Source: an uncultured Azospirillum sp. (GTDB lineage: Bacteria; Pseudomonadota; Alphaproteobacteria; Rickettsiales; UBA3002). From it: DNA of 32,000 nucleotides. The notes under the pieces are model-generated. The model was given only the letters and a program-made list of their open reading frames with translations. It did not search any database and was not told where the DNA came from. Location: contig CAZOFC010000002.1 in assembly GCA_964578965.1 (NCBI GenBank), positions 4,572 to 36,571 of the forward strand, read 5' to 3'. Of this stretch, positions 6,435 through 32,000 are shown piece by piece (position 1 is the first letter of the stretch; each line of letters begins with the position of its first letter). The translations under genes and the position numbers were made by a program.

Positions 6435-8313
6435 GCTAACCTCCCGCTCCATCGTTGACGCTGAAAGCCGCCTTGTGCGGCTTTCTTTTTCTTCGGAGGA
6501 ACCTGTCACCCGGCAGAGCTTTTTCAGCGATGCGTGGGTGGAGGTGCTGGGTCATGACGATGGCGAAGTGGATCTGGAGCGGCTGAATAACAGCGCCCCG
6601 GTGCTTTACAACCATGACCGCAGCGAAGGCGCTAACCGCATTGGCGTGGTGGAACGCGCATGGCTGGAGAATGGCCGTGGTTACGCGGAAATCCGCCTGA
6701 GCCGCCGTGCTGAAGTGGAAGGCCTGTGGCAGGACGTGCGCGATGGCATCCTCCGCAACGTGTCGGTGGCCTACCGCATTAACGAGCGCAAACTCACCGA
6801 AGAACACAAAGATAAACCAGACGTTTACCGCGTTGTCCGTTGGACACCGATGGAAATCTCGCTGGTCGATATTCCCGCTGATCCCACCGTTGGGGTTGGC
6901 CGGAAACTGGAGGCCGAAATCCTCCAGCCTCAACCCCAACCAACCCAAAAGGAGAACCAAATGCCTGAACCCGTAAAAGAACCGCAAGCCCGCACCGAAC
7001 CCGATATGGAAACGGTGCGCGGTGATGCGATGGCCGAAGGTGCAAAGCGTGCGCTGGAGGATGAAAAGAAACGCCGTGGCGATATTCGCGCCCTGTTTGC
7101 CAACCACCCCGACCATGACAAGGTGCGCGATGCGTGCCTCGATAACCCGGAAGTGGATGTGAACGAGGCGCGTAAGCAGCTGCTCGATGCCATTGGCAAG
7201 CGCGAGGAGCCGGTTGCGTCTGGGCAACGTATCGAAATGGGACAGACCGAGGTGGAGAAATTTGCCCGTGCTGCCGAGGATGCGGTTGCCTTCCGTGCCG
7301 GTATCGCTGGCAAAGACAGCGAGCCTTCCGAATTCCGGGGCTATACGTTGCTGGAGTTGGCGCGTAAATCCTTGGAAGTGCGCGGCGTGCGCGTGCATGG
7401 GCTGGATAAGCGCGAATTGGTAGCGCGTGCATTCACCCATTCCAGCAGCGACTTCCCCAAAATCTTGGAGAACAATGCCCGTAAAGCCATGCTGCGCGGG
7501 TATAGTGAGGCTGAGGAAGTCTTCGAGCAATTCACCCGTGTCGGTAACCTGTCCGATTTCAAAACGCACAGCCGCGTTGGTTTGGGCGTGTTTGAAACAC
7601 TGGATAAGATTCCCGAAGGCGGTGAATACAAGCACGGCACGATTGATGAACGTGGGGAAACCATCCAGCTGGCCACCTACGGCAAGCTGTTTGCCATCAC
7701 CCGCCAAGCCATCATCAATGATGACCTGACCGCTTTCACCGATATTCCGCGCAAGATGGGACGTGCCGCGTCACGCACCGTCGGGGATATTGTGTGGAAG
7801 GTGCTGACCGGCAACCCCACCATGTCGGACGGTGTGACGCTGTTCCATACGGCCACGCATAAAAACCTTGCCGCCTCCGGCACGGTAATTAACGCGGCCA
7901 ATGTGGGTGCGGCGCGTACCGCCATGCGTAAACAGAAGGATGGTGCGGCAACCCTCAATATCCGTCCGCAATATCTTTTGGTGCCTGCGGCGCTGGAGGA
8001 TACGGCACGGGTGCTGATGGCATCGGAAACCGACCCGGCTTCCACCAACAGCCGCGTGCCGAACCCGGTGCGTGGTTCGCTGGAAATCATCGTGGATGCG
8101 CGTTTAGATGAGGCATCGGCTACCGCATGGTATCTGACCGCCGACCCGAACCTGTTCGACACGATTGAGGTTGGTTACCTCGATGGCGTTGCCGCTCCGT
8201 TCCTCGACCAGCAGGACGGCTGGACGGTGGATGGTGTGGAATACAAGGTTCGCATCGACGCAGCCGCAGCGCCGCTCGAATACCGCACCATGTATAAAAA
8301 CCCCGGCGCGTAA
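6397..8313 (+). CDS. Prohead protease / scaffold-like linker / major capsid protein fusion
   Basis: 638 aa in three parts. The N-terminal ~170 aa look like a prohead serine protease (RLSFSSEEPV..R...., LYNHD, ISLVDIPADP). The middle is a charged Glu/Lys/Arg-rich helical stretch. The C-terminal ~330 aa are capsid-like (ATYGKLFAITRQAIINDDL...). No separate scaffold or capsid ORF follows. Confidence 0.8.
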   Translation: MTTNPEILTRTLELTSRSIVDAESRLVRLSFSSEEPVTRQSFFSDAWVEVLGHDDGEVDLERLNNSAPVLYNHDRSEGANRIGVVERAWLENGRGYAEIRLSRRAEVEGLWQDVRDGILRNVSVAYRINERKLTEEHKDKPDVYRVVRWTPMEISLVDIPADPTVGVGRKLEAEILQPQPQPTQKENQMPEPVKEPQARTEPDMETVRGDAMAEGAKRALEDEKKRRGDIRALFANHPDHDKVRDACLDNPEVDVNEARKQLLDAIGKREEPVASGQRIEMGQTEVEKFARAAEDAVAFRAGIAGKDSEPSEFRGYTLLELARKSLEVRGVRVHGLDKRELVARAFTHSSSDFPKILENNARKAMLRGYSEAEEVFEQFTRVGNLSDFKTHSRVGLGVFETLDKIPEGGEYKHGTIDERGETIQLATYGKLFAITRQAIINDDLTAFTDIPRKMGRAASRTVGDIVWKVLTGNPTMSDGVTLFHTATHKNLAASGTVINAANVGAARTAMRKQKDGAATLNIRPQYLLVPAALEDTARVLMASETDPASTNSRVPNPVRGSLEIIVDARLDEASATAWYLTADPNLFDTIEVGYLDGVAAPFLDQQDGWTVDGVEYKVRIDAAAAPLEYRTMYKNPGA

Positions 8314-19252: not shown

Positions 19253-19915
19253 ATGACAACGAAAGCAGAACATATCGACACGCTGGCACGCACGCTGTAT
19301 GGCGAGGCCAAACCCCATGACATTCAGGATGCGACCGCCATCGCCTGTGTGGTGATGAACCGGGTGGCGCTCCCGAATTGGCCGGATGACGTAGAATCCG
19401 TGTGCATTCAGCCGTATCAATTCAGCTGCTGGAACACCAGCGACCCGAACCGTGCGCGGATATTCAAGGCCAATGGCGCATGGTTCGATAAATGCGTGCA
19501 GATTGCCATGAAAGCGGTCGATCACCAACTGGTTGACCCCACCAATGCCAGCACGCATTACCACACGCCTGCGGTAAAACCCGCATGGTCGCGGGGCAAG
19601 AAGCCGGTGTATTTCACCAGCGGCCATGTGTTCTTCAACGACATCGATACCAAGCCTCCTGCAAGCGCCAAGGATGCGCTGAACCAGATTAAGCCTATCG
19701 GCAAAACCGATACGATGGTTGCCACCAAGATCGGCGGCGTTGCCAGCGTGGGCATTGGCGCGGTGTCACAGGCCATCGAAACGCTGGAGCCAGCCATGCC
19801 GCTTGCAACGACGCTGGCGCAGGCCGCGCCGTGGGCAATCGTCGCGGTGCTGGCAATGGCGCTGCTTTACATCGCGTGGAGCCGTTACCAAGCCCGGAAG
19901 GAAGGCAAAATATGA
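19253..19915 (+). CDS. Endolysin, SleB-type cell wall hydrolase (Hydrolase_2-like) with a C-terminal transmembrane segment
   Basis: LARTLYGEAKPH...AIACVVMNRV......SVCIQPYQFSCWN is the SleB/CwlJ-type signature. Start chosen at 19253 (GGAGAA RBS 6 nt upstream) rather than 19175, which overlaps the previous gene. C-terminal PWAIVAVLAMALLYIAW. Confidence 0.85.
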   Translation: MTTKAEHIDTLARTLYGEAKPHDIQDATAIACVVMNRVALPNWPDDVESVCIQPYQFSCWNTSDPNRARIFKANGAWFDKCVQIAMKAVDHQLVDPTNASTHYHTPAVKPAWSRGKKPVYFTSGHVFFNDIDTKPPASAKDALNQIKPIGKTDTMVATKIGGVASVGIGAVSQAIETLEPAMPLATTLAQAAPWAIVAVLAMALLYIAWSRYQARKEGKI

Positions 19916-20163
19916 TTGCCACCCTGAAGGCCTTCTTCACCACCAATGCGATGCGTGTGGCCGCGTGGTGCATGGCGGCGCTCTCATTCCTCGGCATTCT
20001 GCTGGCCGCTCGTCGCGCTGGTCGGAATGCCGAGCGAGTGGATGCGCTGGAAAATCAATCCGAAAACGTGAGAAAATCCCATGAAGTCCAAGACAAAAAT
20101 CGTCGCACTCTTGCTGATGGCGACGCTGCTGAACGCCTGCGCGATAAATGGTCGCGTGACTGA
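19912..20163 (+). CDS. i-spanin (Rz-like)
   Basis: 83 aa from ATG 19912 (ATGA overlap with the endolysin stop). N-terminal TM (VAAWCMAALSFLGILLAA) followed by a charged helical periplasmic part. It contains the start of the o-spanin ORF in another frame. Confidence 0.6.
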   Translation: MIATLKAFFTTNAMRVAAWCMAALSFLGILLAARRAGRNAERVDALENQSENVRKSHEVQDKNRRTLADGDAAERLRDKWSRD

Positions 20164-20281
20164 CAGTTTCTGCGCGGTAGGCAGGCCGATTTACATCAGC
20201 AAACAGGACGCGCTAACGGACGGCACGGCGCGGCAAATCCTCGATCATAACGAGGTGGGGCGAAAAATATGCGGCTGGTAA
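20081..20281 (+). CDS. o-spanin (Rz1-like outer-membrane lipoprotein), overlapped architecture
   Basis: 66 aa. Signal peptide with lipobox-like LLNA|C. It starts inside the i-spanin gene in a different frame and extends beyond it. Confidence 0.6.
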   Translation: MKSKTKIVALLLMATLLNACAINGRVTDSFCAVGRPIYISKQDALTDGTARQILDHNEVGRKICGW

Positions 20282-20404
20282 GCTTAGAGCTAACTCCTAA
20301 GTGTGCAATATGGCTTTACGTTTCTTTTATAAAAGATACCTACATATAAAACTGCATTTTTATTAAATTTCCTCATGATTAGCTATCTAACATGGAGGAA
20401 TTTT

Positions 20405-20764
20405 ATGCACCACATCAATAAAGAAATGCGCGAATGTATCCAGCTTTGCTGGGAATGCCGTAGTGAATGCCAGGAAATGCTTTTTAGTCACTGCCTAGAA
20501 ATGGGCGGTAAGCATGTTGAAAAAGAACATGTGAAGCTGATGGCCGATTGTATTCAGGCATGCCAGACCGCTGCCGATTTCATGACGCGCGATTCACAGT
20601 TGCATGCTTCCACCTGTGAAGCCTGCGCCGATGTATGCGACGCATGCGCTGAATCATGCGAGCGCATTGGCGGCGAAGAAATGAAACGCTGTGCAGAACT
20701 ATGCCGCCGCTGTGCGGAAAGCTGCCGCGAAATGGCAAAAACCAAACACAAAAAGGCGGCTTAA
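20405..20764 (+). CDS. Four-helix-bundle Cys-rich copper-binding protein (DUF326 / Csp-like), no signal peptide
   Basis: 119 aa from ATG 20405 (GGAGGA RBS). 16 Cys in repeating CxxxC/CxxC spacing on predicted helices (CIQLCWECRSEC, CIQACQ, CEACADVCDACAESC, CAELCRRCAESC). Confidence 0.85.
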   Translation: MHHINKEMRECIQLCWECRSECQEMLFSHCLEMGGKHVEKEHVKLMADCIQACQTAADFMTRDSQLHASTCEACADVCDACAESCERIGGEEMKRCAELCRRCAESCREMAKTKHKKAA

Positions 20765-20765
20765 T

Positions 20766-21326
20766 ATGAAACAACTTCTCACCGTATCCGCGCTGGCTTT
20801 AACTCTAGCACTTTCACCTACTGCTTATGCCGCAAATGACATGAGCAGCGCTTCTAAAACCACACAGGCCGCAAAAGCGCCATATGACGTGCAATTTCTC
20901 GATACGATGAGCGAGCACCACCGCGATGGTATTAAGATGATGGAGCTGGCGGTAGATAAGGCACAAAGCGCCGATATCAAACAAATGGCACAAAAAGGCA
21001 TTGATGACCAAACCAAGGAAATTGATGAGCTAAAGTCCATGCGTAATTCAGATGCGTCCGAAGCCGTTAATATGAAACTTCCGGGCATGATGCCGAAAGC
21101 TAAAATGGAACAGGATATGGCGAAGCTGGAAAAAGCGTCCGGCAGCGACTTTGATAAACATTTTCTGCAAACGATGATTAAGCACCACGGCGGCGCGGTG
21201 AAAATGTCGGATGACGCGATGGCTAAGGCAAAACGTGATAACGTAAAAACCAAGGCAAAGGAAATTCACGATAAACAAAAGAGCGAAATTTCCGCTATGG
21301 AAAATATGCTTAAAGGAATGAAATGA
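20766..21326 (+). CDS. Periplasmic DUF305-family protein
   Basis: Start at 20766 gives a signal peptide MKQLLTVSALALTLALSPTAYA. There are two DUF305 half-repeats (FLDTMSEHHRDGIKMM and FLQTMIKHHGGAVKMS). Confidence 0.85.
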   Translation: MKQLLTVSALALTLALSPTAYAANDMSSASKTTQAAKAPYDVQFLDTMSEHHRDGIKMMELAVDKAQSADIKQMAQKGIDDQTKEIDELKSMRNSDASEAVNMKLPGMMPKAKMEQDMAKLEKASGSDFDKHFLQTMIKHHGGAVKMSDDAMAKAKRDNVKTKAKEIHDKQKSEISAMENMLKGMK

Positions 21327-21805
21327 AGCATTCCCACGGCGAACATAAACACCACACCATGAAATCGTCCTATAAGCAGCTGGCGGTGATGACGGTTGTG
21401 CATCTTGCCGTCATGTATGTGGCGATGTTTGCGATGATTAATCGCGGTTCGTATTTCTATAATAACACCAATATGTTTTACATGGCGGTGCTGATGGCCG
21501 CGCCGGTTACGTTATTCATGCTTACTTCGATGTGGCATATGTACCCGAACCAGAAGGCAAATATCATTATCGGCATTGCTTTTGCGCTACTTACCATCGC
21601 TTCGTATGGCGCTATCCGGGCGCAAGTTGGCGTGGGTGATAAGCAATTTCTAAGGGCGATGATTCCGCACCATTCCGGCGCAATCCTGATGTGCCGCGAG
21701 GCTAATATCACCGATCAGGAAATCAGCAGCCTGTGCAAAGAAATTATTGACGGTCAGCAACGCGAAATCGACCAGATGGAAGCAATATTTCAGCGATTGA
21801 ATTAA
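21323..21805 (+). CDS. Membrane protein with His-rich N-terminus and a single C-terminal DUF305-like half domain
   Basis: MKHSHGEHKHH, three hydrophobic segments, then FLRAMIPHHSGAILMC....I...Q..EI..ME. ATGA overlap with the upstream gene. Confidence 0.7.
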   Translation: MKHSHGEHKHHTMKSSYKQLAVMTVVHLAVMYVAMFAMINRGSYFYNNTNMFYMAVLMAAPVTLFMLTSMWHMYPNQKANIIIGIAFALLTIASYGAIRAQVGVGDKQFLRAMIPHHSGAILMCREANITDQEISSLCKEIIDGQQREIDQMEAIFQRLN

Positions 21806-22116
21806 TGCTTCATACTTTCATGCTTTTTCTGCATCGACTCCTTTTCAGATTTAGCACAAATTTCGCATTCCTCACCTTCTTTCATTGAAGACATGCCGCC
21901 CTCTTTCATTTTACCCATGCACATTTTGCACATACCGTCCTTGCAGCATTTGCACTCACCATCTTTGCAGCAATCGGCACATTTTCCGTGTTTGCAACAT
22001 TCACATTTTTCACAGCATGGCATTTTCATGTCCATACCAGACATTGAACCACCTTGCGTGTTGGCGCAGGCGGCAACTAAAACCAAGAGTATGACGGGGA
22101 TTATTTTCTTAAACAT
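21802..22116 (-). CDS. Exported Cys/Met-rich lipoprotein, metallothionein-like (no family recognised)
   Basis: 104 aa. Sec/lipoprotein signal MFKKIIPVILLVLVAA|C. The mature part has 15 further Cys, 13 of them within a 33-residue core (CCEKCECCKHGKCADCCKDGECKCCKDGMCKMC), about a dozen Met, and a His/Lys-rich tail. GAGG RBS. Last gene of the merR operon. Confidence 0.7.
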   Translation of the reverse strand: MFKKIIPVILLVLVAACANTQGGSMSGMDMKMPCCEKCECCKHGKCADCCKDGECKCCKDGMCKMCMGKMKEGGMSSMKEGEECEICAKSEKESMQKKHESMKH

Positions 22117-22137
22117 GGCAGCCTCGTTTTTTAGGGG

Positions 22138-22890
22138 TTAAGTGGAATACATCGCCAACAGCATCAATACTGACATGCCGACCATTCCCAAATCCTCCAC
22201 CAGCGTGATGGTGGACATGGGCAGGTTCAGCACCGTGCCAAGGCAGGCGCAGCGAATCTTACGTTTTTCGTGCAGGGCTTGGATAACGCCCAAACTGCTA
22301 AAACCCATCAATGCGATGGAAAAATAAAGAGCGTAAAGTAGCTCATACTGGAAAAGGAATGCCAAGCCTAAGCCAAGCTCAAGGAAGGGATAAACATATC
22401 CATAACTCTTCCAGCGTTTTGCAAGCAAATCATAGGTGGCATAAGCATCACGGAAGCCATTCAGATCCAGCAATTTGAAGAATGAAAATACGATAAAGAA
22501 TCCCGCCATGAAATGCAGCATCCACCCATGCAACCCGAAACCGCCTTTCAACGACACAATCGAAATTAGGCCAATGATGAGCAGCAGTGGATAATAGGTT
22601 GCCAGCCAACTTTTCTGCTCTGCTTCCTTAATGATCGGAACTGTAATCGGCTGGGGCGCTGCCAATTCTTCTTTTAGAGTATAGTCGCCTGCCGTGATGA
22701 TAGCAGCATTAAGGGCGGCCAAATCAGGCAGCGCATCCCCCCGCACTATGGCACGCGGCGGATTGAGTGTGACCTGCACATCATTCACCAGACCTTTTAG
22801 CGCGTCCGTGATTTTCTGCACGCAGGATTGGCAGTGCATACCTTGAATTTGATAGGATTTCCTAGTCACAACAATTTTTTCCTCCACCAC
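22138..22890 (-). CDS. N-terminal heavy-metal-associated (HMA) domain fused to a MauE/DoxX-like polytopic membrane domain
   Basis: YQIQGMHCQSCVQKITDAL is the MxCxxC ferredoxin-like HMA motif. It is followed by 4-5 TM segments and a membrane-proximal RCACLG Cys pair, as I remember for MauE-like proteins. 29-nt overlap with the merR-family gene. Confidence 0.75.
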   Translation of the reverse strand: MVEEKIVVTRKSYQIQGMHCQSCVQKITDALKGLVNDVQVTLNPPRAIVRGDALPDLAALNAAIITAGDYTLKEELAAPQPITVPIIKEAEQKSWLATYYPLLLIIGLISIVSLKGGFGLHGWMLHFMAGFFIVFSFFKLLDLNGFRDAYATYDLLAKRWKSYGYVYPFLELGLGLAFLFQYELLYALYFSIALMGFSSLGVIQALHEKRKIRCACLGTVLNLPMSTITLVEDLGMVGMSVLMLLAMYST

Positions 22891-23302
22891 GGGTGATATA
22901 ATCTAGGATCGGGCAATCGGCGCTGGAGGTGTCATCGCCGGGACATTCTTTCGTAAGTACGAGCAGTGCTTTCTTAACTTCCTTAAGTTCACATATTTTT
23001 TGTTCCGCTTCCGCGATCTTACCAGTGGTATGTTTCAGCACTTCCGCACAAGTTGCTTTATCAGAACGATTCAAAGTGAGCAGCTGGCGGATTTCTTCGA
23101 GTGTGAAGTTGAGTGTTTTTGCACCTTTTATGAATTGCAGGATACGCTCGGCATCTTCGCCATAAATCCGATAGCCAGCCCCAGAACGGCTGGCCGCTTT
23201 AATCAGCCCCATTTTTTCGTAATAGCGGAGCGTATCGGTGCTGATACCAGTACGCTCCGCCAGTTTACCAATCGTCAGAAGTTGAATCGTTTTTTGCCTC
23301 AT
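22862..23302 (-). CDS. MerR-family heavy-metal-responsive transcriptional regulator
   Basis: 146 aa from ATG 23302. HTH LTIGKLAERTGISTDTLRYYEKMGLI. Putative metal ligands are C in DKATCAEV, the loop CPGDDTSSADCP, and C-terminal NCC. The longer ORF start at 23341 would sit upstream of the promoter. Confidence 0.9.
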   Translation of the reverse strand: MRQKTIQLLTIGKLAERTGISTDTLRYYEKMGLIKAASRSGAGYRIYGEDAERILQFIKGAKTLNFTLEEIRQLLTLNRSDKATCAEVLKHTTGKIAEAEQKICELKEVKKALLVLTKECPGDDTSSADCPILDYITRGGGKNCCD

Positions 23303-23309
23303 GACATTC

Positions 23310-23341
23310 AATCTACACCTTGGAGCGTACTCCAAGGTCAA
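23310..23341 (-). promoter_or_regulatory. MerR-type promoter/operator: TTGACC - 20-bp spacer containing a perfect 9-4-9 palindrome - TAGATT
   Basis: The minus strand reads TTGACCTTGGAGTACGCTCCAAGGTGTAGATT. The palindrome ACCTTGGAG/CTCCAAGGT is at 23317-23338. The over-long spacer is the MerR-family hallmark. The -10 ends 7 nt before the merR ATG. Confidence 0.7.
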
Positions 23342-23345
23342 GGGG

Positions 23346-24215
23346 TTATTTAACCGTTACGCCAAATGGCGCAAATATATCCTTTCCATCAATCCGCACC
23401 TGCGCGAATAGCTTTACGAAACCAGCCGTTTTTGGCTCGATATGAAATTCCAATTTAGGACCACCGCGCTCCGTGTCGCTGGTTGGTTCTTTGCCCATCG
23501 GGTGGATATGCAGGACGGAATTATAATCCTCGGTGAATCCCACAACATGCGCGAATGCACCCATCACCGGCTCTAATTGCGTGAATGGTTTTCCGTCTTT
23601 AGTGACGGTGATATTGCCCATTACTGCTGCGCCAGCCTTTGGTTCGCTATCCAGCGCAAGCGTGAAGGTATAACCATCCACCATGCTGGTCATGGACATG
23701 GTTTTATTGATCGCGGCGTTGTTCTTGGCCACGTTCCCCATATCCGCCATCACATATTCCTGCTTGCCGGTGGCAACCGGAATCATGTCCGCCCATACGC
23801 GGTAGCTGTCATTTTTCTTTGGCGTGAAATCAAACACGAATTCACCCGCATTCTTGCCAGCGACAGGGTGAATATGGTGATAATCAGTGAGTGACGGGTC
23901 AACGATCAGCAAATGCAGCTTTTTGGTGTGCGCTTCTTTAAGGTCATCAAAAGAGATAGGCTTGCCATCTGCCGTAGCATTCAGCTTCACTACCACTTGT
24001 GTGATCTTACCCGCTTGCAGTGGTGTTACAGGCTCCAAAGCAAGTTTTACGGTATTTTTAGCCGCCATTTCATCATGTGCGCCGCCATGCCCCATAGCTT
24101 CATGGGAAGTAGCAGTTGGCTGGGCTTGATCGTGACCGCTATGATCGCCAGCAGCATAGGCAATAGTACCGGTGGTTAAAATGGTGCTGATAAATAATGC
24201 GTGAAATAGTTTCAT
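23346..24215 (-). CDS. Secreted protein with a His-rich N-terminus and two tandem ~110-aa beta-type domains, each carrying an HIHP motif; function unknown
   Basis: Signal peptide MKLFHALFISTILTTGTIAYA. His-rich stretch GDHSGHDQ...HEAMGHGGAHDE. Internal repeat: ..DGKPISF..L...H.KKLHLLIVDPSLTDYHHIHPV versus ..DGKPFTQLEPVMGAFAHVVGFTEDYNSVLHIHPM. Confidence 0.6.
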   Translation of the reverse strand: MKLFHALFISTILTTGTIAYAAGDHSGHDQAQPTATSHEAMGHGGAHDEMAAKNTVKLALEPVTPLQAGKITQVVVKLNATADGKPISFDDLKEAHTKKLHLLIVDPSLTDYHHIHPVAGKNAGEFVFDFTPKKNDSYRVWADMIPVATGKQEYVMADMGNVAKNNAAINKTMSMTSMVDGYTFTLALDSEPKAGAAVMGNITVTKDGKPFTQLEPVMGAFAHVVGFTEDYNSVLHIHPMGKEPTSDTERGGPKLEFHIEPKTAGFVKLFAQVRIDGKDIFAPFGVTVK

Positions 24216-24227
24216 GATGTTACCTTC

Positions 24228-24674
24228 TTATTTTACGTTAGATTCAACAAGTTTCAGCGCACCTTCTGCTTTTTTGAATTCGGCTTTGGTTTGCTCTGCA
24301 TCTTTGGCATCGGCAGCACTGTGTACCTTGCCCAGTTGGGTACTCAGTTGTTTAAGCGAAGCCTCAAGGCGGGTTTTCTTATCGCCTTCCAATGCAGACT
24401 TTTCTTTCAGCGCTTTAATGCTGGCTTCGATCTTTTCAATTTCATCGTGCATGGCATCGTGCTTATTTTCGCTAATTTGCGTGCCGATAGTTTTCATGCC
24501 AGCCTGAATTTCTGTCAGCGCACCCTGTGCATCCGCTGCGACAGAAACAGTTTTTGGAGCAGCGGCATGGGCTTCTGTATGTTGCCCTTCATGTTTTTCA
24601 TCGCCATGCGCCAGTGCCGGTTGCTGTAAGCCAGACAAGGCCAGTATCGCGGTAGTAAGCAGTATTTTCTTCAT
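24228..24674 (-). CDS. Secreted all-helical His-rich small protein, function unknown
   Basis: Signal peptide ...QQPALA|HGDEKHEGQHTEAH, then Lys/Glu/Ala-rich predicted helices. It is 15 nt downstream of the RND gene and 12 nt upstream of the next gene, so it is probably co-transcribed. Confidence 0.55.
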   Translation of the reverse strand: MKKILLTTAILALSGLQQPALAHGDEKHEGQHTEAHAAAPKTVSVAADAQGALTEIQAGMKTIGTQISENKHDAMHDEIEKIEASIKALKEKSALEGDKKTRLEASLKQLSTQLGKVHSAADAKDAEQTKAEFKKAEGALKLVESNVK

Positions 24675-24689
24675 ATCATTCTCCTTTGG

Positions 24690-27600
24690 TTAATGAGTAA
24701 TTGCCGCTGGCAGTAAAGCCGCGACGGGTTTTTTGCCGAATTTCCAGAACACCAGCGGGCGCACGGTAAGGTCGAGCAGCGTGCTGGAAAACAATCCGCA
24801 GAAAATCACCACCGCTACGGGGTGCAGGATTTCGCGTCCCGGCTCGTCGGCAGCGATAACCAGCGGAATCAGGGCAAGCGAAGCAGTAAGCGCGGTCATC
24901 AAAACAGGAATAATTCGCTCGGATGTGCCGCGATAAATCATGCCAAGGTCAAAGCGTTCGCCTTCATGCTCCATAAGATGCAGGTAATGCGCGATCATCA
25001 TGATGCCATTACGGGCAGCGATGCCGGTGAGCGTGACAAAACCCACCATTGTTGCAATCGAGAATACGCCGCCGGAGAGCCACACGCCGATCACTGCGCC
25101 GATAAAGGCCAACGGAATAGATACCATCACCTGAAGTGCAAGGTTGGCACTCTTGAAATGCACGAACAGCACCATGAACATGCCAGCCAGCGAGAATAGG
25201 CTTAATATGGCAATCAAGCGCGAGGCGGTGGCTTGGCTCTCAAATTGTCCGCCGTAAGTGACGTAATAGCCCTGTGGCAACTGCACCTTGCTATCAATCG
25301 TCGCTTGTACTTTCTTCACCACACCCACCAGATCGCGCTCGGCCACGTTTGCCTGAATCACAATGCGCCGCTGGGCGTTTTCGCGGTTAATGATGTTTGG
25401 TCCTTTGGCATCCTGCACAGTGGCAATGGCTTGCAGGGGAACGACATTACCATCTTTGGTATCCACAGGAATTTGCTTGATCGCTTCAATGTCGCTCCGC
25501 GCTGCATCAGATAGGCGCATGACAATATCGTAGGTGCGCTGGCCATCCAGCACTTGCCCCACGGCTTTACCTTGCATGGCAAGTTCGGCATATTCCGCAG
25601 CTTCGCCCGAAAGAAGTCCGTAGGTGGCAGCTTTCTCACGATCAAACAGCACATGCACCTGTGGAATAAGCACCTGCTTTTCTACTGACAGATCCACCAC
25701 GCCTTCTACTTCACTCATGGCTATGCGGATTTCTTCGGCTTTAGCACGAAGCACGTCCAGATCAGTACCAAACAGCTTGATGGCAATTTGCGCCCGTACA
25801 CCGCTCATCATGTGGTCAATGCGGTGCGAAATAGGCTGGCCGATATTGATGGCAATGCCGGGGATTTCATCCAAACGGGTGCGAATATCCGCCAGAATCA
25901 CGGCGCGGGAACGCTTCGATTCTTTCAGCTCCACTTCAATTTCACTGGAATGCACGCCTTCTGCGTGGTCATCACGCTCGGCGCGGCCTGTGCGTCTTCC
26001 GGTTTCGGTGGCTTCCGGCACTTGGCGAATCAGGTTTTCGGCAATCGTGCCGATACGGTTGGATTCAGCAAGGCTGGTTCCGGGCGGGGTCAGGATGTTA
26101 ATCGTCACCGAGCCTTCATTGAACTGGGGTAGGAATTCTTTGCCGAAGAACGGCACCATTGCCAGCACCGTGAAAGTCAGCAACGCAACTGCTGTTAGTA
26201 CGGATTTGCTGTGTGGAAACGCAAAATTCAGCACGCTGGTTTGAATACCTTTGATCTTGCGTAGCAGCCAGCTGTCATGCTCTGCACTCATGCGCTTCAT
26301 GTTCGGCAACAGGTAAGAGCAAAGGGCTGGGGTCAGCGTGAGCGATACAAATAGCGAAGCGATGATTGAGGTGATGTAAGCAATGCCAAGTGGCAGGAAG
26401 ATTTTGCCCTCAATGCCGCCCATTGCAAAGAGCGGAATGAACACCAGAACGACAATAATCGTGGCGAACACGATAGAGTTTCGCACCTCGCTGGATGCTT
26501 CGTAAATCACCTGTAGCGGATTGCGCGGCTTTTCTGCGTGGCGGTTTTCACGCAAGCGGCGGAACACATTCTCCACATCCACAATCGCATCGTCCACCAA
26601 TTCACCAATCGCCACTGCCAAGCCGCCTAGCGTCATCGTGTTGATACTCATGCCAAACATTTTGAACACAATCGCTGTTAGCACGAACGAAAGAGGGATG
26701 GCGGTGAGCGTGATGAAGGTGGTGCGAAAATTAAGCAGGAATAAAAACAGCACGATGGCAACCAGAATCGCCCCGTCGCGCAAGGCTTCTTCTACGTTCT
26801 TGATAGCACGTTCGATGAAACTGCCTTGTTTGAAAATATCGCCGTGGATTTTTACGCCTTCGGGCAGATTTTTTTGAATGCTGGCAAGCTCGGCTTCAAT
26901 CGCCTTGGTGAGCTTGATGGTATCTGCTCCGGGCTGTTTCTGCACAGACAAGATCACCGCAGGGCTACCATTGACGCTGGCATCACCACGCTTTGCCAGA
27001 GGGCCACCCAGCTTAATATCCGCCACCTGATCGAGCGTCAGCGGGGTTGGGCTTCCATTATCCTTCGGTAAGGGTGACTTTGCCAAGTCATCCAGTGTTT
27101 TTATTCTGGCGATATTGCGGATTAAGCCTTCCTGATAATCGGAAAGTAAAAATCCGCCAGTGGCGTTAATGTTAGAACCGGCAATGGTGACTTCCACGTC
27201 ATGCAGTGTTACGCCGTAATTCTTGAGTTTTAGCGGGTCAACCAACACCTGATATTGTTTGAGGTCACCACCAATCACCGACACCTGTGAAATGCCCGAA
27301 ATAGAGAGCAAGCGATTGCGTATGTCCCATTCAGCAATAGTGCGTAAATCCATATTGTTCGTTTCAGGGTTTTCCGAGGTTAACCCCACCAGCATGATTT
27401 CACCCATGATGGAAGAAATCGGCCCCATAACAGGGCGTGCGTCCTGCGGTAGGGTTTCCTGCGCCTGTTGCAGTTTTTCTGCGACAATCTGGCGGGCGGT
27501 GTAAATATCCGTATCCCAGCCGAACTCCACCCATACAATCGAAAGCCCGATAGCAGAAGCCGAGCGCACACGCTCCACGCCTGTAGAGCCGTTTACCGCT

Positions 27601-27812
27601 GTTTCAATAGGCCATGTTACCAGTGCTTCCACTTCCTCCGGCGCAAGCCCTTCGGCTTCGGTGAAGATGGTCACGGTGGGGCGGTTTAAGTCAGGAAAAA
27701 CATCCACGGGCAATTTGCTGATGACGAATACGCCATACACCAGCAGCATGGCCGAGGCCGCTACAACCAGTAACCTGTTTTTCAGTGAGAATTGGATGAT
27801 CGCGTTGAGCAT
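24690..27812 (-). CDS. Heavy-metal-efflux RND permease (CzcA/CusA superfamily, HME-RND)
   Basis: 1040 aa. N-terminus MLNAIIQFSLKNRLLVVA...LPVDVFPDLNRPTVTI and the TM4 acid ladder AIGELVDDAIVDVENVF are typical of HME-RND pumps. Confidence 0.95.
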   Translation of the reverse strand: MLNAIIQFSLKNRLLVVAASAMLLVYGVFVISKLPVDVFPDLNRPTVTIFTEAEGLAPEEVEALVTWPIETAVNGSTGVERVRSASAIGLSIVWVEFGWDTDIYTARQIVAEKLQQAQETLPQDARPVMGPISSIMGEIMLVGLTSENPETNNMDLRTIAEWDIRNRLLSISGISQVSVIGGDLKQYQVLVDPLKLKNYGVTLHDVEVTIAGSNINATGGFLLSDYQEGLIRNIARIKTLDDLAKSPLPKDNGSPTPLTLDQVADIKLGGPLAKRGDASVNGSPAVILSVQKQPGADTIKLTKAIEAELASIQKNLPEGVKIHGDIFKQGSFIERAIKNVEEALRDGAILVAIVLFLFLLNFRTTFITLTAIPLSFVLTAIVFKMFGMSINTMTLGGLAVAIGELVDDAIVDVENVFRRLRENRHAEKPRNPLQVIYEASSEVRNSIVFATIIVVLVFIPLFAMGGIEGKIFLPLGIAYITSIIASLFVSLTLTPALCSYLLPNMKRMSAEHDSWLLRKIKGIQTSVLNFAFPHSKSVLTAVALLTFTVLAMVPFFGKEFLPQFNEGSVTINILTPPGTSLAESNRIGTIAENLIRQVPEATETGRRTGRAERDDHAEGVHSSEIEVELKESKRSRAVILADIRTRLDEIPGIAINIGQPISHRIDHMMSGVRAQIAIKLFGTDLDVLRAKAEEIRIAMSEVEGVVDLSVEKQVLIPQVHVLFDREKAATYGLLSGEAAEYAELAMQGKAVGQVLDGQRTYDIVMRLSDAARSDIEAIKQIPVDTKDGNVVPLQAIATVQDAKGPNIINRENAQRRIVIQANVAERDLVGVVKKVQATIDSKVQLPQGYYVTYGGQFESQATASRLIAILSLFSLAGMFMVLFVHFKSANLALQVMVSIPLAFIGAVIGVWLSGGVFSIATMVGFVTLTGIAARNGIMMIAHYLHLMEHEGERFDLGMIYRGTSERIIPVLMTALTASLALIPLVIAADEPGREILHPVAVVIFCGLFSSTLLDLTVRPLVFWKFGKKPVAALLPAAITH

Positions 27813-27815
27813 GGC

Positions 27816-28782
27816 TTATTCCTTATGCTCGTCTTTATGTTCATCTTTTTTAGGCTCGGCAGACTTAGCGAATTGCAGTTGGTAATTCCCCACGGTCACC
27901 ACTTCTTCATCAGGGAACACGCCTTCCAGCACCTCGCGGTCACCGCCAAACTTTGCACCCAGCTTTACGCTGCGCCGCTCGAAATCATTGCCGCTGCGGA
28001 CAAATACGAATTGTTCTCCGCTTTCACCTAAAATTGCTTTCACTGGCACGGCTAGAATATCAGCGGGTGTAGTGATTTCAATCGACAGTACCACCTGCAT
28101 ATTCGCCAATAATTTACGGTCAGGATTACCCACCAGCGCATAGACATTGAAGGTACGGCTTCCACGATCATACGCGCCATCCATGCGTTGTACTTTGCCA
28201 AGCAAGGAATCGCCTCCGAGCAAGCTGCTGGTGACGCGCACATTTTGCCCCCACCTGAATCTTGGTAACATCCGGCGTTTCATACATCACGCCGCGCACC
28301 AGCACTTCACTGGATTCGCCCACTTCCATCAAGGCCGCTTCTGGCGTGACGGATTGACCCAGCACTACGCTTTGCTTGGTGACGTAACCTGTGATTGGGG
28401 ACGGAATCGAAACCGGCGAGCTGCCCACAAAAATAGGCTGAATGGTGAGCAAGCTCTGGCCTTTATTCACTTTCTCTCCCACCTTAATGTGAATCTCCGA
28501 TACGCGGCCAGCGGCGCGGGAAGTCACAATGGCTTGGCGTTCCGGTAGGAATTCGACAATCCCATTCACATCCACCGATGTGGCGCGTGGAGCAATCGCT
28601 GCTTTTACTGTCTGGATGCCAAGGTTGTTGATCGCGGTATCGGAAAGCGTCACCGTGCTAACAACGCCCGACCCTCCCTCTGTTCCGGGGGCTTCGGCGT
28701 GATCTTCCCCTTCATGTGCAAATGCCTGATTAAACAGGCCAAGCCCTACGATAAGGATGACTGTGGCTATCGTTTTCTTCAT
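27816..28782 (-). pseudogene. RND periplasmic adaptor (MFP, CzcB/CusB-class) interrupted by a +1 frameshift in a G5 (C5 on +) run at 28248-28252
   Basis: ORFs 28168..28782 and 27816..28283 are two halves of one adaptor. Frame A reads ..DVTKIQVG|AKCARH, and frame B reads ..RFRWG|QNVRVTSSLLGG. Deleting one G gives a continuous ..DVTKIQVGQNVRVTSS.. of about 321 aa. Confidence 0.8.
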
Positions 28783-29996
28783 TTGATTTCCTCTAGTTTT
28801 CCACCTAGTTCCAATTCCAATGCGCCGCGTGCGTTTACCGCCTGTGCCAGCGCATCGAGGGCTTCATTTTCGCTGGTGAGTAATTTCTCGCGCACCTGCC
28901 ATACTTCCAGCGCGTCAGCTTGGCCTTGGCGGAACATGCTGCGGGTGAGTTCGTATGATTTGCGGTATCCGGGTAATATCTCGTCGAAATAGCTGGTAGT
29001 GCGTTCCTGCATGGCGCTGGCGCTTAGTCCCAATTCAGCAATCAGGTCTTTTTGTGGCAGTAGATTGAATAAATCAGTCTCGGCTCTGGCCTGCTTCACT
29101 TCGGATGTTGCTCTCTTACGCTCGGCATCGTTTTGGTTCCATAGCGGAATACGCAAGGCAATGCCAAAACCATAAGCATCTGCACCGCCATCTGCCCCAC
29201 GCGAATAAAGCACACGCGGACCGATTTCTGGCAATACGCCATCCTGCTCTGCGACATTTAGGCGCTGTTCCGCTGCTTTCAGGCGATTTTTAACAACATT
29301 ACGCAGATTGGAACGAGTTTCAGCGAATTTCTGTAATTGCTCCAGGTCTTGCGGCACGGGGTTAAATACAGGGCGCGATAATTCTACTGTCTGGTATGCA
29401 CGGCCAGTTCTACGTCCTAATTCTGTGCGAGTTTGGCGCAATTCGGCTTCAACAGCTCGTGCATCTGCTCGTAATTTGGCTGCATCGGAAGAAAATAAAT
29501 GTGCTGCCGCTGGGCTTGTCTGGCCTTGCCCTGCGGAGGCATTAACCAGTTTTTTCATTTTATCCGCATCATCTGCATAGGTTTCATACAGGCGCTTGCG
29601 TTCCTGAAGCAGCCAGACTTGGGTATAAAGCACGGTCGTTTCATTGATGACTTTTAGAATTTCATATTGCTGCTCGGTTCCAGCAACTTCACTAAGCAAA
29701 TCGGCATATCGTGAGCGAGAGCCTGAAATCTGTGATAGCTTCAAAGGCTGCGTCAGTTCAAAATCCGCCCCCGTACCATCATTACCACGACTGCGGATAA
29801 CATCAGCGTTCAGTTCAGGATTATCGAACTGCTTGGCTTCCGTGGCATCAGCAATTCTATCGTCATAAGCACGTTGCGCTTGGTAAATGCCGGTATTTTT
29901 TTGAAGGCTATCTTTGATAACTTGATCGAGCGAAAGTGTTTCAGCGGAAGCTATAGCCGGAAACCCTGCCAACAAAATTATTAACGCTATTCGCAT
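28779..29996 (-). CDS. Outer-membrane factor, TolC/CzcC family
   Basis: 405 aa. Signal peptide MRIALIILLAGFPAIASA and LSLDQVIKDSL.KN..I..A typical of OMF N-termini. ATGA overlap with the adaptor gene. Confidence 0.9.
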   Translation of the reverse strand: MRIALIILLAGFPAIASAETLSLDQVIKDSLQKNTGIYQAQRAYDDRIADATEAKQFDNPELNADVIRSRGNDGTGADFELTQPLKLSQISGSRSRYADLLSEVAGTEQQYEILKVINETTVLYTQVWLLQERKRLYETYADDADKMKKLVNASAGQGQTSPAAAHLFSSDAAKLRADARAVEAELRQTRTELGRRTGRAYQTVELSRPVFNPVPQDLEQLQKFAETRSNLRNVVKNRLKAAEQRLNVAEQDGVLPEIGPRVLYSRGADGGADAYGFGIALRIPLWNQNDAERKRATSEVKQARAETDLFNLLPQKDLIAELGLSASAMQERTTSYFDEILPGYRKSYELTRSMFRQGQADALEVWQVREKLLTSENEALDALAQAVNARGALELELGGKLEEIK

Positions 29997-30022
29997 GAGA
30001 ATCTCCTGAACTATTCAGGGAG

Positions 30023-30048
30023 TAATACGAATCCCTAAAGTCTATCCC
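30023..30048 (-). promoter_or_regulatory. Candidate ECF-sigma-dependent promoter in front of the OMF-MFP-RND genes (GGGATA-N13-CGTATTA)
   Basis: The minus strand reads GAGGGATAgactttagggattCGTATTActccc, ending 26 nt upstream of the OMF ATG. The identical bipartite motif recurs at 31417-31442. Confidence 0.6.
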
Positions 30049-30058
30049 TCAAAAAATA

Positions 30059-30613
30059 TCAGCGTTTTTTGAAGATTTTTTCTTCCAACAGCTTACGGGC
30101 GCGGTAAACACGGGTTTCAACGGTTTTTGCCGTTACACCAAGCAATTCCGCACATTCGTCCTGCGTGCGATCTTCCAGCGCAAAAAGTATTAACGCAGTC
30201 TTAAGTTTATGCGGCAGGGATTCGAGGGACTGGTTAATATGCCGAACTGCCTGATTGGACTGCGCGATAGTTTCGGGGTCAGGCGCGGCATCTGTAAAAT
30301 CAAAACCTGAATCTTCATCATCTATTGAAAAGAACTGCGCCAACTTCTTCTTACGACCATGATCGCGGCAGAGATTTAGTGCAATCTGGAAAAGCCACGT
30401 CGAGAATTTATATTCAGGCTTGTAGGTGATGGCAGAGAAATAGAGCTTTGTGAAAGTTTCCTGCACCAAATCATAGGCCACGTCTTCATCGCCAACATAA
30501 CGGCGTATAAACGCAAAAAGGCGGTGCTTATACCGCGCCATCAGCTCATTGAGTGCGGGATTCTCTCCGCCCTTCAATTTCTCAATTAGTTCCTGATCTG
30601 TGCATTCCTTCAT
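30059..30613 (-). CDS. ECF-type RNA polymerase sigma factor (CnrH-like by context)
   Basis: 184 aa. Region 2 (YDLVQETFTKLY, FSTWLFQIALNLCRDHGRK) and region 4 (ALEDRTQDECAELLGVTAKTVETRVYRARKLL). Confidence 0.9.
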   Translation of the reverse strand: MKECTDQELIEKLKGGENPALNELMARYKHRLFAFIRRYVGDEDVAYDLVQETFTKLYFSAITYKPEYKFSTWLFQIALNLCRDHGRKKKLAQFFSIDDEDSGFDFTDAAPDPETIAQSNQAVRHINQSLESLPHKLKTALILFALEDRTQDECAELLGVTAKTVETRVYRARKLLEEKIFKKR

Positions 30614-30624
30614 GCCGCCGCGCT

Positions 30625-31062
30625 TTATGGGTTATGAGTGAGCGCGTCAGTCGTAAGGCTATTCAACTTCTTTCGCTGTTCTGGTGTCAGCACACTGTGC
30701 ATTTCAAACAAATGCTCAAGCGTCACTTTTTGTAGTTCACCCATTGCAGTATGGATTTTATCAACTGCTTGCTGCACGCGAGGAGAGTAGTTACCATCCT
30801 CATTAATGGCTGTAGCCAGTTCACCGTTAGCTTGATGGATTTCTGCCTCCAACGCCTTCTTGCGATCTGCGAATTTGGCCTCAATAGGCTCCAGCTTTGT
30901 GTCTTGCTCTGCGGTGAGGTTTAACTGTTCATGCAGCCATTGATGCGGATCGTGTGTTGTTTCACGATGCCCCATAAACGAATTGCCCACCATCCAGCAC
31001 GCGCTGAAAGCTAAAGCAGCGACGATTAGGCTGAGGCGGAGATCACGGTACAATCGTTTCAT
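30625..31062 (-). CDS. cnrX: Membrane-anchored periplasmic heavy-metal sensor, CnrX-like (Spy/CpxP-fold family)
   Basis: N-terminal TM. HQWLHE, ANGELATAI, SPRV, and GELQKVTLEHLFEMHSVLTPEQR parallel my memory of C. metallidurans CnrX ([42 protein letters not shown]). Confidence 0.8.
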   Translation of the reverse strand: MKRLYRDLRLSLIVAALAFSACWMVGNSFMGHRETTHDPHQWLHEQLNLTAEQDTKLEPIEAKFADRKKALEAEIHQANGELATAINEDGNYSPRVQQAVDKIHTAMGELQKVTLEHLFEMHSVLTPEQRKKLNSLTTDALTHNP

Positions 31063-31391
31063 AAACGCTCATAATTCGGGGTGATGGAAGCCAAAGCAAT
31101 CACCTTCGGCTTAAAAACTTTGAAGTTCAGCATTTCCGCCGCATCTGGCGCGGGGGGATGCATCGTGCCAAAACCCACCATGATACCAAGCACGGCGGCT
31201 GCCATCACAGGTGAAAAACGGTGCTGTGCCGGGAAAATACTGGCAAGCAATCCCTCAAGGAAACCTACCGGCTGCTCAGATTTTTCCGCCACAATCCGCG
31301 CCCAAACATCGCTTTCCAGATGTTTCAGACGGCCATTGATTGGCTCTGAGTTTCTAAGCAATGCCAATACATTATCAATTCTTTTGGTCAT
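31059..31391 (-). CDS. Single-pass membrane protein, putative anti-sigma factor (positional equivalent of CnrY)
   Basis: 110 aa with one TM (FSPVMAAAVLGIMVGFG). ATGA overlap with the sensor gene. First gene behind the upstream copy of the ECF-type promoter. No sequence family recognised. Confidence 0.45.
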   Translation of the reverse strand: MTKRIDNVLALLRNSEPINGRLKHLESDVWARIVAEKSEQPVGFLEGLLASIFPAQHRFSPVMAAAVLGIMVGFGTMHPPAPDAAEMLNFKVFKPKVIALASITPNYERL

Positions 31392-31416
31392 AAATACCTC
31401 GCTCCTATCTATACCC

Positions 31417-31442
31417 TAATACGAACGAGTTATCCATATCCC
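31417..31442 (-). promoter_or_regulatory. Candidate ECF-sigma-dependent promoter in front of the anti-sigma/sensor/sigma genes (GGGATA-N13-CGTATTA)
   Basis: The minus strand reads AAGGGATAtggataactcgttCGTATTAgggta, ending 25 nt upstream of ATG 31391. It has the same hexamer, heptamer and spacing as 30023-30048. Confidence 0.6.
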
Positions 31443-31997
31443 TTAAAAATCTTCGTCCAATTCTTTCTTAGATAATCTTACTATCCGCCATGATCCAGAA
31501 ACGGCCAACCATCCAAGGATAGCTGCAACAATAATATCCGGCCAGATGGTGCTGGAGGCGAATACGCCAGCGGCGGCGATCATCACGGCGATATTGCCAA
31601 TGGCATCGTTGCGGCTGCATATCCATACGGATTCGCGGTTGCTATCGCCGCCACGGTATTTGTAGAGTAGCACAGCACAACCGATATTGACCGCCAGCGC
31701 AATCACACTGATAGCCGCCATGATGAGGGGTTTTGGCAGTTCAGGCTGTAGGGCGTGGTGGAGTGTTTCAAACGCCACCCACAGCCCTACCAAGCCCAAG
31801 GAAATGCCTTTGAACATCGAAGCCTTTGCGCGTTGGCGGAGCGATTGATCCAGCACATAGAGGCTGATGCCGTAATTGGCGGCATCGGAGAGAAAATCTG
31901 CGCTGTTGGCCAGCAGTGAAACAGAATGCGCGGCGTAGCTTGCTATCATCTGCACCACAAACATCACCGCGTTAGCAATCAAGCATATCCACAGCAC
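31443..31997 (-). CDS. Cation diffusion facilitator (CDF) family transporter, membrane domain only; N-terminus lies beyond the window
   Basis: SLLANSADFLSDAANY (TM2 DxxxD) and WICSRNDAIGNIAVM (TM5) follow the CDF pattern. The ORF is open to the window edge. The protein ends about 15 aa after the last TM, so there is no cytoplasmic C-terminal domain. Confidence 0.8.
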   Translation of the reverse strand: MLWICLIANAVMFVVQMIASYAAHSVSLLANSADFLSDAANYGISLYVLDQSLRQRAKASMFKGISLGLVGLWVAFETLHHALQPELPKPLIMAAISVIALAVNIGCAVLLYKYRGGDSNRESVWICSRNDAIGNIAVMIAAAGVFASSTIWPDIIVAAILGWLAVSGSWRIVRLSKKELDEDF

Positions 31998-32000
31998 CTT

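Follow-up and report, generated by a model that had tools for sequence, protein, structure and literature searches.

A predicted metallothionein-like lipoprotein encoded in a MerR-type operon within a copper island of an uncultured alphaproteobacterium

How could a small protein with sixteen cysteines work in the oxidising compartment of the bacterial envelope? This question is raised by a gene in a 32,000-nucleotide stretch of DNA from an uncultured Azospirillum sp. (GTDB lineage Alphaproteobacteria; Rickettsiales; UBA3002; contig CAZOFC010000002.1, positions 4,572 to 36,571), hereafter the window, which encodes a Cys- and Met-rich prolipoprotein. The original prediction, made from the sequence without database searches, had pointed to the resemblance of this protein to metallothioneins and asked whether it binds metal as thiolates, forms a disulfide knot or cycles between the two states. 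Based on the gene, its operon and its homologues, we propose, with moderate confidence, that it is a metal-induced, envelope-anchored, metallothionein-like protein that would hold Cu(I)/Ag(I) as thiolates and serve as a sponge or relay.

The coding sequence occupies 21802..22116 on the minus strand and specifies a 104-aa Cys/Met/Lys-rich prolipoprotein, exactly where and as the original prediction, which drew on a table of open reading frames (ORFs), had placed and quoted it. A Shine-Dalgarno sequence, GAGG, can be read 5 nt before the ATG (22122..22125, minus strand). The product begins MFKKIIPVILLVLVAAC|ANTQ..., with cleavage predicted at VAA|C17. Residues 1-16 (22069..22116) form a signal peptide with an MFKK n-region, an IIPVILLVLV h-region and the V-A-A of the lipobox, while the codon of the Cys predicted to be lipid-modified, Cys17, which is invariant in alignment A1, lies at 22066-22068. 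Lipoproteins were recognised by an N-terminal K/R, an uncharged h-region, a lipobox of the form [LVI][ASTVI][GAS]C and a Cys at position 15-35, a rule of the PROSITE type. The window protein has a K/R in its first 7 residues, six uncharged residues, L-V-A-A-C and a Cys at position 17, and the rule was passed by 91 of 95 family sequences, the exceptions being one fragment, two mis-called starts and one sequence with a Cys in its h-region. The signal peptide and lipobox proposed earlier were thus borne out. Under the E. coli +2 rule, which may not carry over to these alphaproteobacteria, the Ala at position +2 would imply that the protein is not retained in the inner membrane, and the outer-membrane destination originally proposed would follow from this rule.

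From Cys17 onwards, the mature protein comprises 88 aa (87 after the lipid-bearing Cys), among them 16 Cys (18%), 16 Lys, 12 Met and 3 His, with no F/W/Y and a single I/L/V residue. Its Cys residues are found at positions 17, 34, 35, 38, 40, 41, 46, 49, 50, 55, 57, 58, 63, 66, 84 and 87. A Met-rich stretch, MSGMDMKM (residues 25-32, 22021..22044), would form a flexible tether between the lipid anchor and a Cys core (residues 34-66, 21919..22017) that contains 13 Cys in four units, CCEKCE, CCKHGKCAD, CCKDGECK and CCKDGMCKMC, confirming the CC-x-C quasi-repeat that had been described. The core is followed by a second Met-rich stretch, MGKMKEGGMSSM (residues 67-78, 21883..21918), by a C-terminal CxxC (21856..21867) that reads CEIC here and CPMC in most relatives, with C84 invariant and C87 nearly so in alignment A1, and by the tail KKHESMKH, so that the Met-rich flanks and the tail were likewise all present as reported. 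The claim that the coding DNA is internally repetitive held in part: repeats are present (TGCTGCAA twice, TGCAAA four times), but their extent is modest, with Tandem Repeats Finder detecting a single 24-nt period of 2 copies at 83% matches (21925-21972).

The operational definition of a metallothionein asks for a low mass, 15-30% Cys arranged in CC, CxC and CxxC, and few or no aromatic or hydrophobic residues, and the window protein has all of these properties. The resemblance based on Cys density that was originally proposed therefore stands, with 18% Cys and 0 aromatics. The original prediction had also raised membership of a known non-metal family, but neither Pfam, NCBIfam nor PDB gave the protein a significant family match. 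Pfam returned 0 families even at E-values up to 10, including no Metallothio* or SmtA/BmtA profile, NCBIfam (release June 2026) returned 0 families, and the PDB profile search returned chance matches alone (RING-finger/BRCA1 and PEC-60, E >0.2). AlphaFold2, run with a 40-sequence alignment, gave a mean predicted local distance difference test score (pLDDT) of 61 and a predicted template modelling score (pTM) of 0.31, with no confident fold and no helix bundle. Such an absence of a confident modelled fold would be expected of an apo-metallothionein, although it is weak evidence.

We examined how the sequence varies among homologues. Proteins identical to that of the window were present on 14-17 metagenome contigs from several freshwater metagenomes. 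The family comprises 40 clusters at 90% identity, and a HMMER scan of 1.84 billion representatives recovered just 43 clusters at 50% identity. All 18 genome matches were uncultured metagenome-assembled genomes, 16 of them labelled Rickettsiales or Alphaproteobacteria and the remaining 2 labelled Azospirillum sp. and Pseudomonadota. Among 21 distinct coding sequences, the third codon position varied in 85 of 94 columns and the second in 41; the median pairwise ratio of nonsynonymous to synonymous substitution (dN/dS) was 0.11 at a mean dS of ~1.4, indicating strong purifying selection. A spurious ORF and an opposite-strand gene were both excluded by this codon-position pattern and dN/dS. A GGAG or GAGG Shine-Dalgarno sequence precedes the start by 5-7 nt in all 21 homologous loci. 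The homologue comparison that the original prediction had suggested found the Cys columns conserved while their codons switch synonymously between TGT and TGC. Because of this conservation, and because no other stop-to-stop frame of 60 aa or more in the window is as rich in Cys, the Cys pattern is more than a product of chance. By all sequence criteria available, the prediction of a translated, exported lipoprotein is supported. Close homologues retain the MSGMDMKM-type stretch, and more distant ones vary in it.

The lipoprotein gene is the last of a three-gene operon on the minus strand, in which a merR-like gene is followed by a gene for an HMA/MauE protein that overlaps merR by 8 nt, and then, after a 21-nt gap, by the lipoprotein gene. 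The first gene (22862..23302) encodes a predicted 146-aa metal sensor of the MerR family with Pfam and NCBIfam matches. This regulator has three candidate ligand Cys, in KATCAEV and in CPGDDTSSADCP (C-x9-C), and a C-terminal CC. Its loop is CueR-like (CPGDD..ADCP) but spaced as C-x9-C, and it carries a Cys at the position of MerR Cys79, which is Ser77 in CueR. Among solved structures, it matched the Hg-responsive MerR of B. megaterium (4ua1) at 87.5 bits and E. coli CueR at 80 bits, and its top NCBIfam match was ZntR, below the cutoff. These features suggest that the sensor responds to a soft, thiophilic metal, which may be Cu(I) or a divalent ion.

Upstream of the regulator lies a MerR-type promoter/operator (23310..23341, minus strand), in which a -35 element, TTGACC (23341-23336), and a -10 element, TAGATT (23315-23310), are separated by a 20-nt spacer containing a perfect 9-bp dyad, ACCTTGGAG-tacg-CTCCAAGGT (23338-23317). 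The merR mRNA is probably leaderless, because the ATG lies only 7 nt past the -10 element. In all of the 11 other loci with a complete region upstream of the regulator, the promoter is conserved as CTTGACCTTrGAGTAyrCTCCAAGGTGTAGrwT while its flanks vary. MerR operons are recognised by a sigma-70 promoter with a 19-20 nt spacer that holds a dyad operator and by an adjoining regulator gene, all of which are found here. E. coli PzntA and PcopA have the same promoter architecture. The placement of the promoter implies a single autoregulated transcript for merR, HMA/MauE and the lipoprotein. Judged by these elements, transcription of the lipoprotein gene would be metal-dependent and driven from an activator-dependent MerR-type promoter. 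A generic scan for sigma-70 promoters and terminators gave fewer promoter matches than shuffled controls and no more terminator matches than controls; it missed the MerR-type promoter because of the 20-nt spacer. Rfam and tRNA scans were empty.

To which metal might this operon respond? The homologous loci place the lipoprotein gene in four independent contexts that all appear copper-centred. In context A (the window and loci L015-L018), the order is MerR, HMA/MauE, lipoprotein. In context B, found in at least 10 loci, MerR is followed by the lipoprotein, a DUF2933 protein and a P-type ATPase. This ATPase has CPC, YN and MxxSS motifs and matches TIGR01511 (copper-translocating) at 608 bits against a cutoff of 397, so it is predicted to be a Cu(I)/Ag(I) exporter on the basis of the established P1B-1 signature. 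In context C, the multicopper oxidase CopA, CopB and a cupredoxin/CusF fusion precede the lipoprotein gene, which follows after a 26-nt gap, sometimes with DUF2933 and ATPase genes behind it. Context D consists of MerR, a DUF4396 membrane protein and the lipoprotein (L035). In this last locus, which is a viral contig, the DUF4396 protein (6116-6601, plus strand) has an HCLIGCVIGE motif and a His-rich N-terminus and stands in the place of HMA-MauE. The distant family members are mostly on short contigs that reveal little of their surroundings, with an RND pump and a CDF transporter (L040), or FTR1 and a cupredoxin, as neighbours.

We next considered whether the Cys residues are better explained as metal ligands or as partners in disulfides. 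Across 93 full-length family members, 7 to 23 Cys are present in addition to the lipid-bearing one, and in 78 of these proteins their number is odd. The repeat unit holds 3 Cys, and its copy number varies by clean in-frame insertions and deletions, such that one, two or three CCKxGxC units occur in otherwise collinear proteins in alignment A1. Near-identical alleles illustrate this variation: the gene at 479-763 of L031 differs from those at 460-795 of L021 and 8001-8336 of L022 by a 51-nt (17-codon) in-frame indel. The deletion in the L031-type allele removes exactly two CCKxGxC units, so that this one-unit allele has 9 Cys where three-unit alleles have 15, and the direct repeat AATGCTGCAAGGA at its bounds indicates that copy number changes by a repeat-mediated process. 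Since the Cys count is variable and mostly odd, and since 3-Cys units are gained and lost, a fixed disulfide knot is disfavoured; metal-thiolate clusters could tolerate variation in unit number, whereas a conserved disulfide knot could not. By these indirect arguments, the odd and variable Cys counts, the 3-Cys modules and the Cu(I)-export partners would favour metal thiolates.

According to the mechanism that we propose, a rise of a thiophilic metal in the cytoplasm, most likely Cu(I) and possibly also Ag(I), would cause the CueR/MerR-like sensor to remodel the over-long promoter and switch the operon on. An inner-membrane partner would then handle or deliver the metal, this being HMA-MauE in the window and DUF2933 with a P1B-1 CopA-type ATPase, or DUF4396, in the sister loci. 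The tethered periplasmic lipoprotein would take Cu(I) first on Met thioethers and then into polynuclear Cu(I)-thiolate clusters formed by its 15 free Cys, and periplasmic Cu(I) would be buffered in this way until the multicopper oxidase or the CusCBA-type pump of the same island removes it. Gain and loss of repeat units would tune the capacity. A bolder version, which we offer tentatively and regard as possible rather than probable, is that the protein represents the first natural metallothionein outside the cytoplasm: lipid-anchored, loaded with polynuclear Cu(I)-thiolate where the metal leaves inner-membrane handlers, its thiols protected from the oxidising periplasm by metal occupancy or by HMA/Grx-MauE as a dedicated redox partner, its capacity set through 3-Cys units, and the gene spread among uncultured freshwater alphaproteobacteria as cargo of temperate phages and conjugative elements.

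Several observations weigh against a Cu(I)-thiolate buffer. The third Cys of the sensor and its best PDB match, Hg-MerR, would suit a divalent soft metal equally well as Cu(I). The Met-rich flanks are lost in distant members, leaving the Cys core as the conserved feature. A 54%-identical homologue in L030 (8001-8267) lies between pheA (prephenate dehydratase) and ccmFGHI and not in a copper locus; this was the only long-flanked locus examined that falls outside a metal island, and ccmFGHI belongs to cytochrome c maturation, a periplasmic thiol-redox system. The periplasm is oxidising, and vicinal or CxC Cys would be prime targets for oxidation by DsbA or Cu(II). Finally, the operon neighbour belongs to a family, MauE, that is reported to generate disulfides in place of DsbB (bioRxiv 10.64898/2026.03.05.709764).

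This neighbour (22138..22869, minus strand), assigned by Pfam HMA and MauE matches, has an N-terminal HMA domain (GMHCQSC), an extra transmembrane helix and a MauE/DoxX-type core of four transmembrane helices with a CAC motif. Stand-alone MauE proteins are reported, in a 2026 preprint, to replace DsbB in E. coli via a CXC in the periplasmic loop between transmembrane helices 3 and 4 (bioRxiv 10.64898/2026.03.05.709764). The CAC motif is invariant in HMA-MauE and in Grx-MauE fusions, and such fusions recur beside DUF305 genes in copper islands (22138-22869 in the window, 4902-5669 in L033 and 4635-5366 in L034); the Grx-MauE fusions stand beside DUF305 in cueR/copA and copAB islands on Phaeobacter and Alteromonas plasmids, and one of them adjoins DsbD, DsbA and rhodanese genes. 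Owing to the extra helix, helix parity puts the HMA or Grx domain and the CXC loop on one face of the membrane. That face has at least 8 K/R in its loops compared to 1 on the opposite face, and the N-terminus lacks a signal peptide; from the positive-inside rule and the missing signal peptide, we infer that the HMA/Grx domain and the CXC loop lie in the cytoplasm, in which case the core would be oriented oppositely to that of canonical MauE. Most lipoprotein loci lack MauE, and MauE fusions occur without the lipoprotein, so the two are best regarded as independent modules of copper islands. An obligatory functional coupling of the lipoprotein to MauE was rejected because most loci have no MauE gene.

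Because the MauE family is reported to generate disulfides, cycling between thiolates and disulfides remains a live idea. The protein could be a thiol/disulfide redox device, either a sacrificial or cycling reservoir of Cys that counters copper-catalysed oxidation or a substrate or relay of the upstream MauE oxidoreductase. Copper stress is known to mis-oxidise periplasmic thiols. The reported exchange of DsbB for MauE through a CXC active site (bioRxiv 10.64898/2026.03.05.709764), together with the invariant CAC of the neighbour and of the Grx-MauE proteins in other copper islands, one of them by DsbD/DsbA/rhodanese, would fit such a role. We nevertheless consider it unlikely, since most loci (contexts B, C and D) carry the lipoprotein gene but no MauE gene, some copper islands with Grx-MauE fusions lack the lipoprotein, the CAC loop is predicted to face the cytoplasm, away from the lipoprotein, and odd Cys counts leave unpaired thiols. 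Alternatively, a protein of this same architecture could bind Hg(II), Cd(II), Pb(II) or Zn(II) as its physiological ligand instead of Cu(I). The operon would then form a sequestration module without a reductase, in which HMA-MauE handles the metal in the manner of MerT/MerP and the lipoprotein acts as its sink. The regulator speaks for this alternative through its Cys at the MerR Cys79 position (Ser77 in CueR), its two-Cys loop, the better score of Bacillus Hg-MerR than of CueR (87.5 vs 80 bits) and the sub-cutoff ZntR match, as do the CDF transporter and the Metal_resist/CpxP-like protein in the island and the RND pump and CDF transporter that adjoin the distant homologue in L040. Nearby, however, there is no merA, merT or merP, and the ATPase that this regulator and promoter control in sister loci bears the Cu(I)/Ag(I) signature (CPC, YN, MxxSS); the copA-copB-CusF operon context, an RND pump with the CusA-type A-x5-D-x6-E motif and Met-rich stretches typical of Cu(I)/Ag(I) sites likewise point to copper or silver, making another metal quite unlikely.

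In the window, no more than ~1.5 kb separates the lipoprotein gene from a prophage lysis cassette; in L035 the gene is the immediate neighbour of such a cassette, and it is also present on three IMG/VR contigs. This would be expected if the product were a structural, toxin-like or phage-moron lipoprotein knotted by disulfides, acting for example in superinfection exclusion, whose gene has no link to the island beyond travelling with it. Such a role is very improbable given that, L030 apart, the gene is co-oriented and tightly spaced in metal operons, including the ICE-like locus L011 (resembling an integrative conjugative element) and the chromosomal copAB loci L009 and L019, that no conserved knot could accommodate a Cys number that varies and is mostly odd, and that the protein has no confident fold and no tblastn match among 50,697 phage records. 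Bufferin precursors, which include a BUF_6/12Cys class, are exported, Cys-bearing, copper-protective and small, and some of their operons encode a protein of the DoxX type (PMC11626156), so the lipoprotein might be the precursor of a bufferin-type copper chelator that is ribosomally made and then modified. Such a precursor would sit with MNIO (DUF692) and DUF2063 genes, but neither was present in the window or in the Pfam-marked gene tables of the loci looked up; the protein has no DUF2282 or NCBIfam bufferin match, and its signal ends in a lipobox rather than a signal-peptidase-I site. A bufferin or other ribosomally made, modified peptide was rejected on account of the missing MNIO gene in those tables, and we hold it to be most improbable.

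How does a metal-induced, envelope-anchored Cu(I)/Ag(I)-thiolate protein compare with known copper and metallothionein systems? SmtA/BmtA and MymT are likewise small, very Cys-rich, metal-induced proteins with CxC/CC motifs and no hydrophobic core, and MymT is a Cu(I) thionein within a copper regulon (PMC7558416). Unlike the window protein, they are cytosolic, lack a signal peptide or lipid anchor and show no detectable sequence relationship to it; SmtA further differs by its zinc-finger fold and His ligands. A 2020 review lists SmtA and MymT among cytosolic copper buffers, and Tat-exported Csp1 and CueR-regulated CueP as Cys-based periplasmic copper proteins (PMC7558416), so Cys-based handling of copper in the periplasm has precedent. 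Csp1 is exported and stores many Cu(I) on Cys thiolates, as the lipoprotein would, and the Met/His at its mouth recall the Met flanks. However, it is a pre-folded four-helix-bundle tetramer exported by Tat, whereas the lipoprotein has a Sec/lipoprotein signal and is repeat-modular, gave no Csp, DUF326 or TIGR04401 match in Pfam or NCBIfam and showed no bundle in the AlphaFold model. Salmonella CueP is a periplasmic, Cys-dependent copper protein that is switched on by a MerR-family copper sensor and acts downstream of P1B ATPases, much as proposed for the lipoprotein. Its 180 aa, however, fold into two domains with one site, it is neither lipidated, Cys-rich nor repeat-based, and no sequence similarity was found. 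Bufferins (BufA1/BufA2) are small, exported, Cys-bearing proteins that buffer periplasmic copper, occasionally from operons with a DoxX/MauE-superfamily protein (PMC11626156), but they need MNIO and DUF2063 to convert Cys to thiooxazole, and neither gene occurred in the loci looked up. CusF, PcoE/SilE and CopM/DUF305 share Met-rich capture motifs, the envelope and cus/cop islands with the lipoprotein, but they use Met/His/Trp ligands and have few or no Cys, while the Met flanks of the lipoprotein are dispensable in its distant members.

Metallothioneins have been displayed on the cell surface with Lpp/OmpA fusions, in which a lipoprotein signal joined to a metallothionein confers metal-thiolate capacity on the envelope. 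These displays, made for bioremediation, are synthetic, and the window protein would be their equivalent in nature, equipped with a dedicated regulator. It would work most like the Cu-thionein MymT placed where Csp1, CueP and the bufferins act, although it belongs to none of these families. Sequestration of metal by a Cys-rich protein is a familiar principle; new would be where this protein acts, how it is anchored, its modular repeats and its sequence family. Full-text literature searches retrieved no description of a periplasmic or lipoprotein metallothionein, the nearest item describing PmtA, which lacks a signal, on the surface of Pseudomonas.

In the prevailing view, bacterial metallothioneins are rare and cytosolic, and copper in the envelope is buffered by Met/His proteins, Csp1/CueP and bufferins. 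If our proposal is true, a lipoprotein metallothionein would be a new envelope solution, and the question becomes how fifteen thiols stay functional where disulfides are formed. With a dedicated sensor and promoter and with repeat-number variants that occur naturally, the operon would be a compact system for studying how capacity is tuned, and it could serve bioremediation as an off-the-shelf component for capturing metal in the envelope.

Several genes around the operon also have metal-related assignments. Convergent with it on the plus strand, a Csp3-like cytosolic, signal-less, Cys-rich four-helix-bundle protein with a DUF326/TIGR04401 match (20405-20764) is followed by two DUF305/CopM-like proteins (20766-21326 and 21323-21805), the second of which is 160 aa long with a His-rich N-terminus and hydrophobic segments. 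The stop codon of this second DUF305 gene overlaps that of the convergent lipoprotein gene (TTAA), and the overlap leaves no space for a terminator between them. On the minus strand upstream of the operon (23346..29996) are genes for two His-rich exported proteins, a CusA-like RND pump, a CusB-like adaptor and an outer-membrane factor. The pump carries the A-x5-D-x6-E motif and scores 478 bits against CusA versus 438 bits against ZneA. The two His-rich proteins, of 289 aa (23346-24215, minus strand) and 148 aa (24228-24674, minus strand), could be assigned to neither a Pfam nor an NCBIfam family. Most versions of the island keep both genes in the interval from the merR promoter to the CusA-like pump, and their products are candidates for accessory proteins that bind metal in the periplasm. 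The island further encodes a CDF transporter, an ECF sigma factor and a Metal_resist (CpxP-like) protein.

The metal island (20375-32000) begins 93 nt past the lysis cassette of a prophage, and at its start the G+C content falls from ~0.58 to 0.45-0.50. In several loci (L013, L015, L035-L037), islands that differ in composition adjoin this same phage end, the lipoprotein gene is present on three IMG/VR viral contigs, and in L011 the island adjoins genes for a type IV secretion system, ArdC and Fic, as in integrative conjugative elements (ICEs). Because of the G+C drop, the varied islands at one phage end, the viral contigs and these neighbours, we consider the island to be mobile and possibly phage cargo; it may have travelled as phage or ICE cargo. 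The window yielded neither att sites nor tRNA genes, a plasmid collection searched with the locus by megablast and with the protein by tblastn contained no relative, and tblastn found no match in the phage records. This linkage to prophages and ICEs bears on how copper tolerance spreads in freshwater communities. The prophage itself spans position 1 to ~20281 of the window and encodes terminase gpA, a lambda-type portal, capsid, tape measure, a GTA_TIM tail protein, DUF2793, a cell-wall hydrolase and a spanin-like pair. The genes of this pair (19831-20281, plus strand) overlap, resemble those of an i-spanin and an o-spanin and would close the lysis cassette; they encode a 110-aa membrane-anchored protein and a 66-aa lipoprotein with an LLNAC lipobox.

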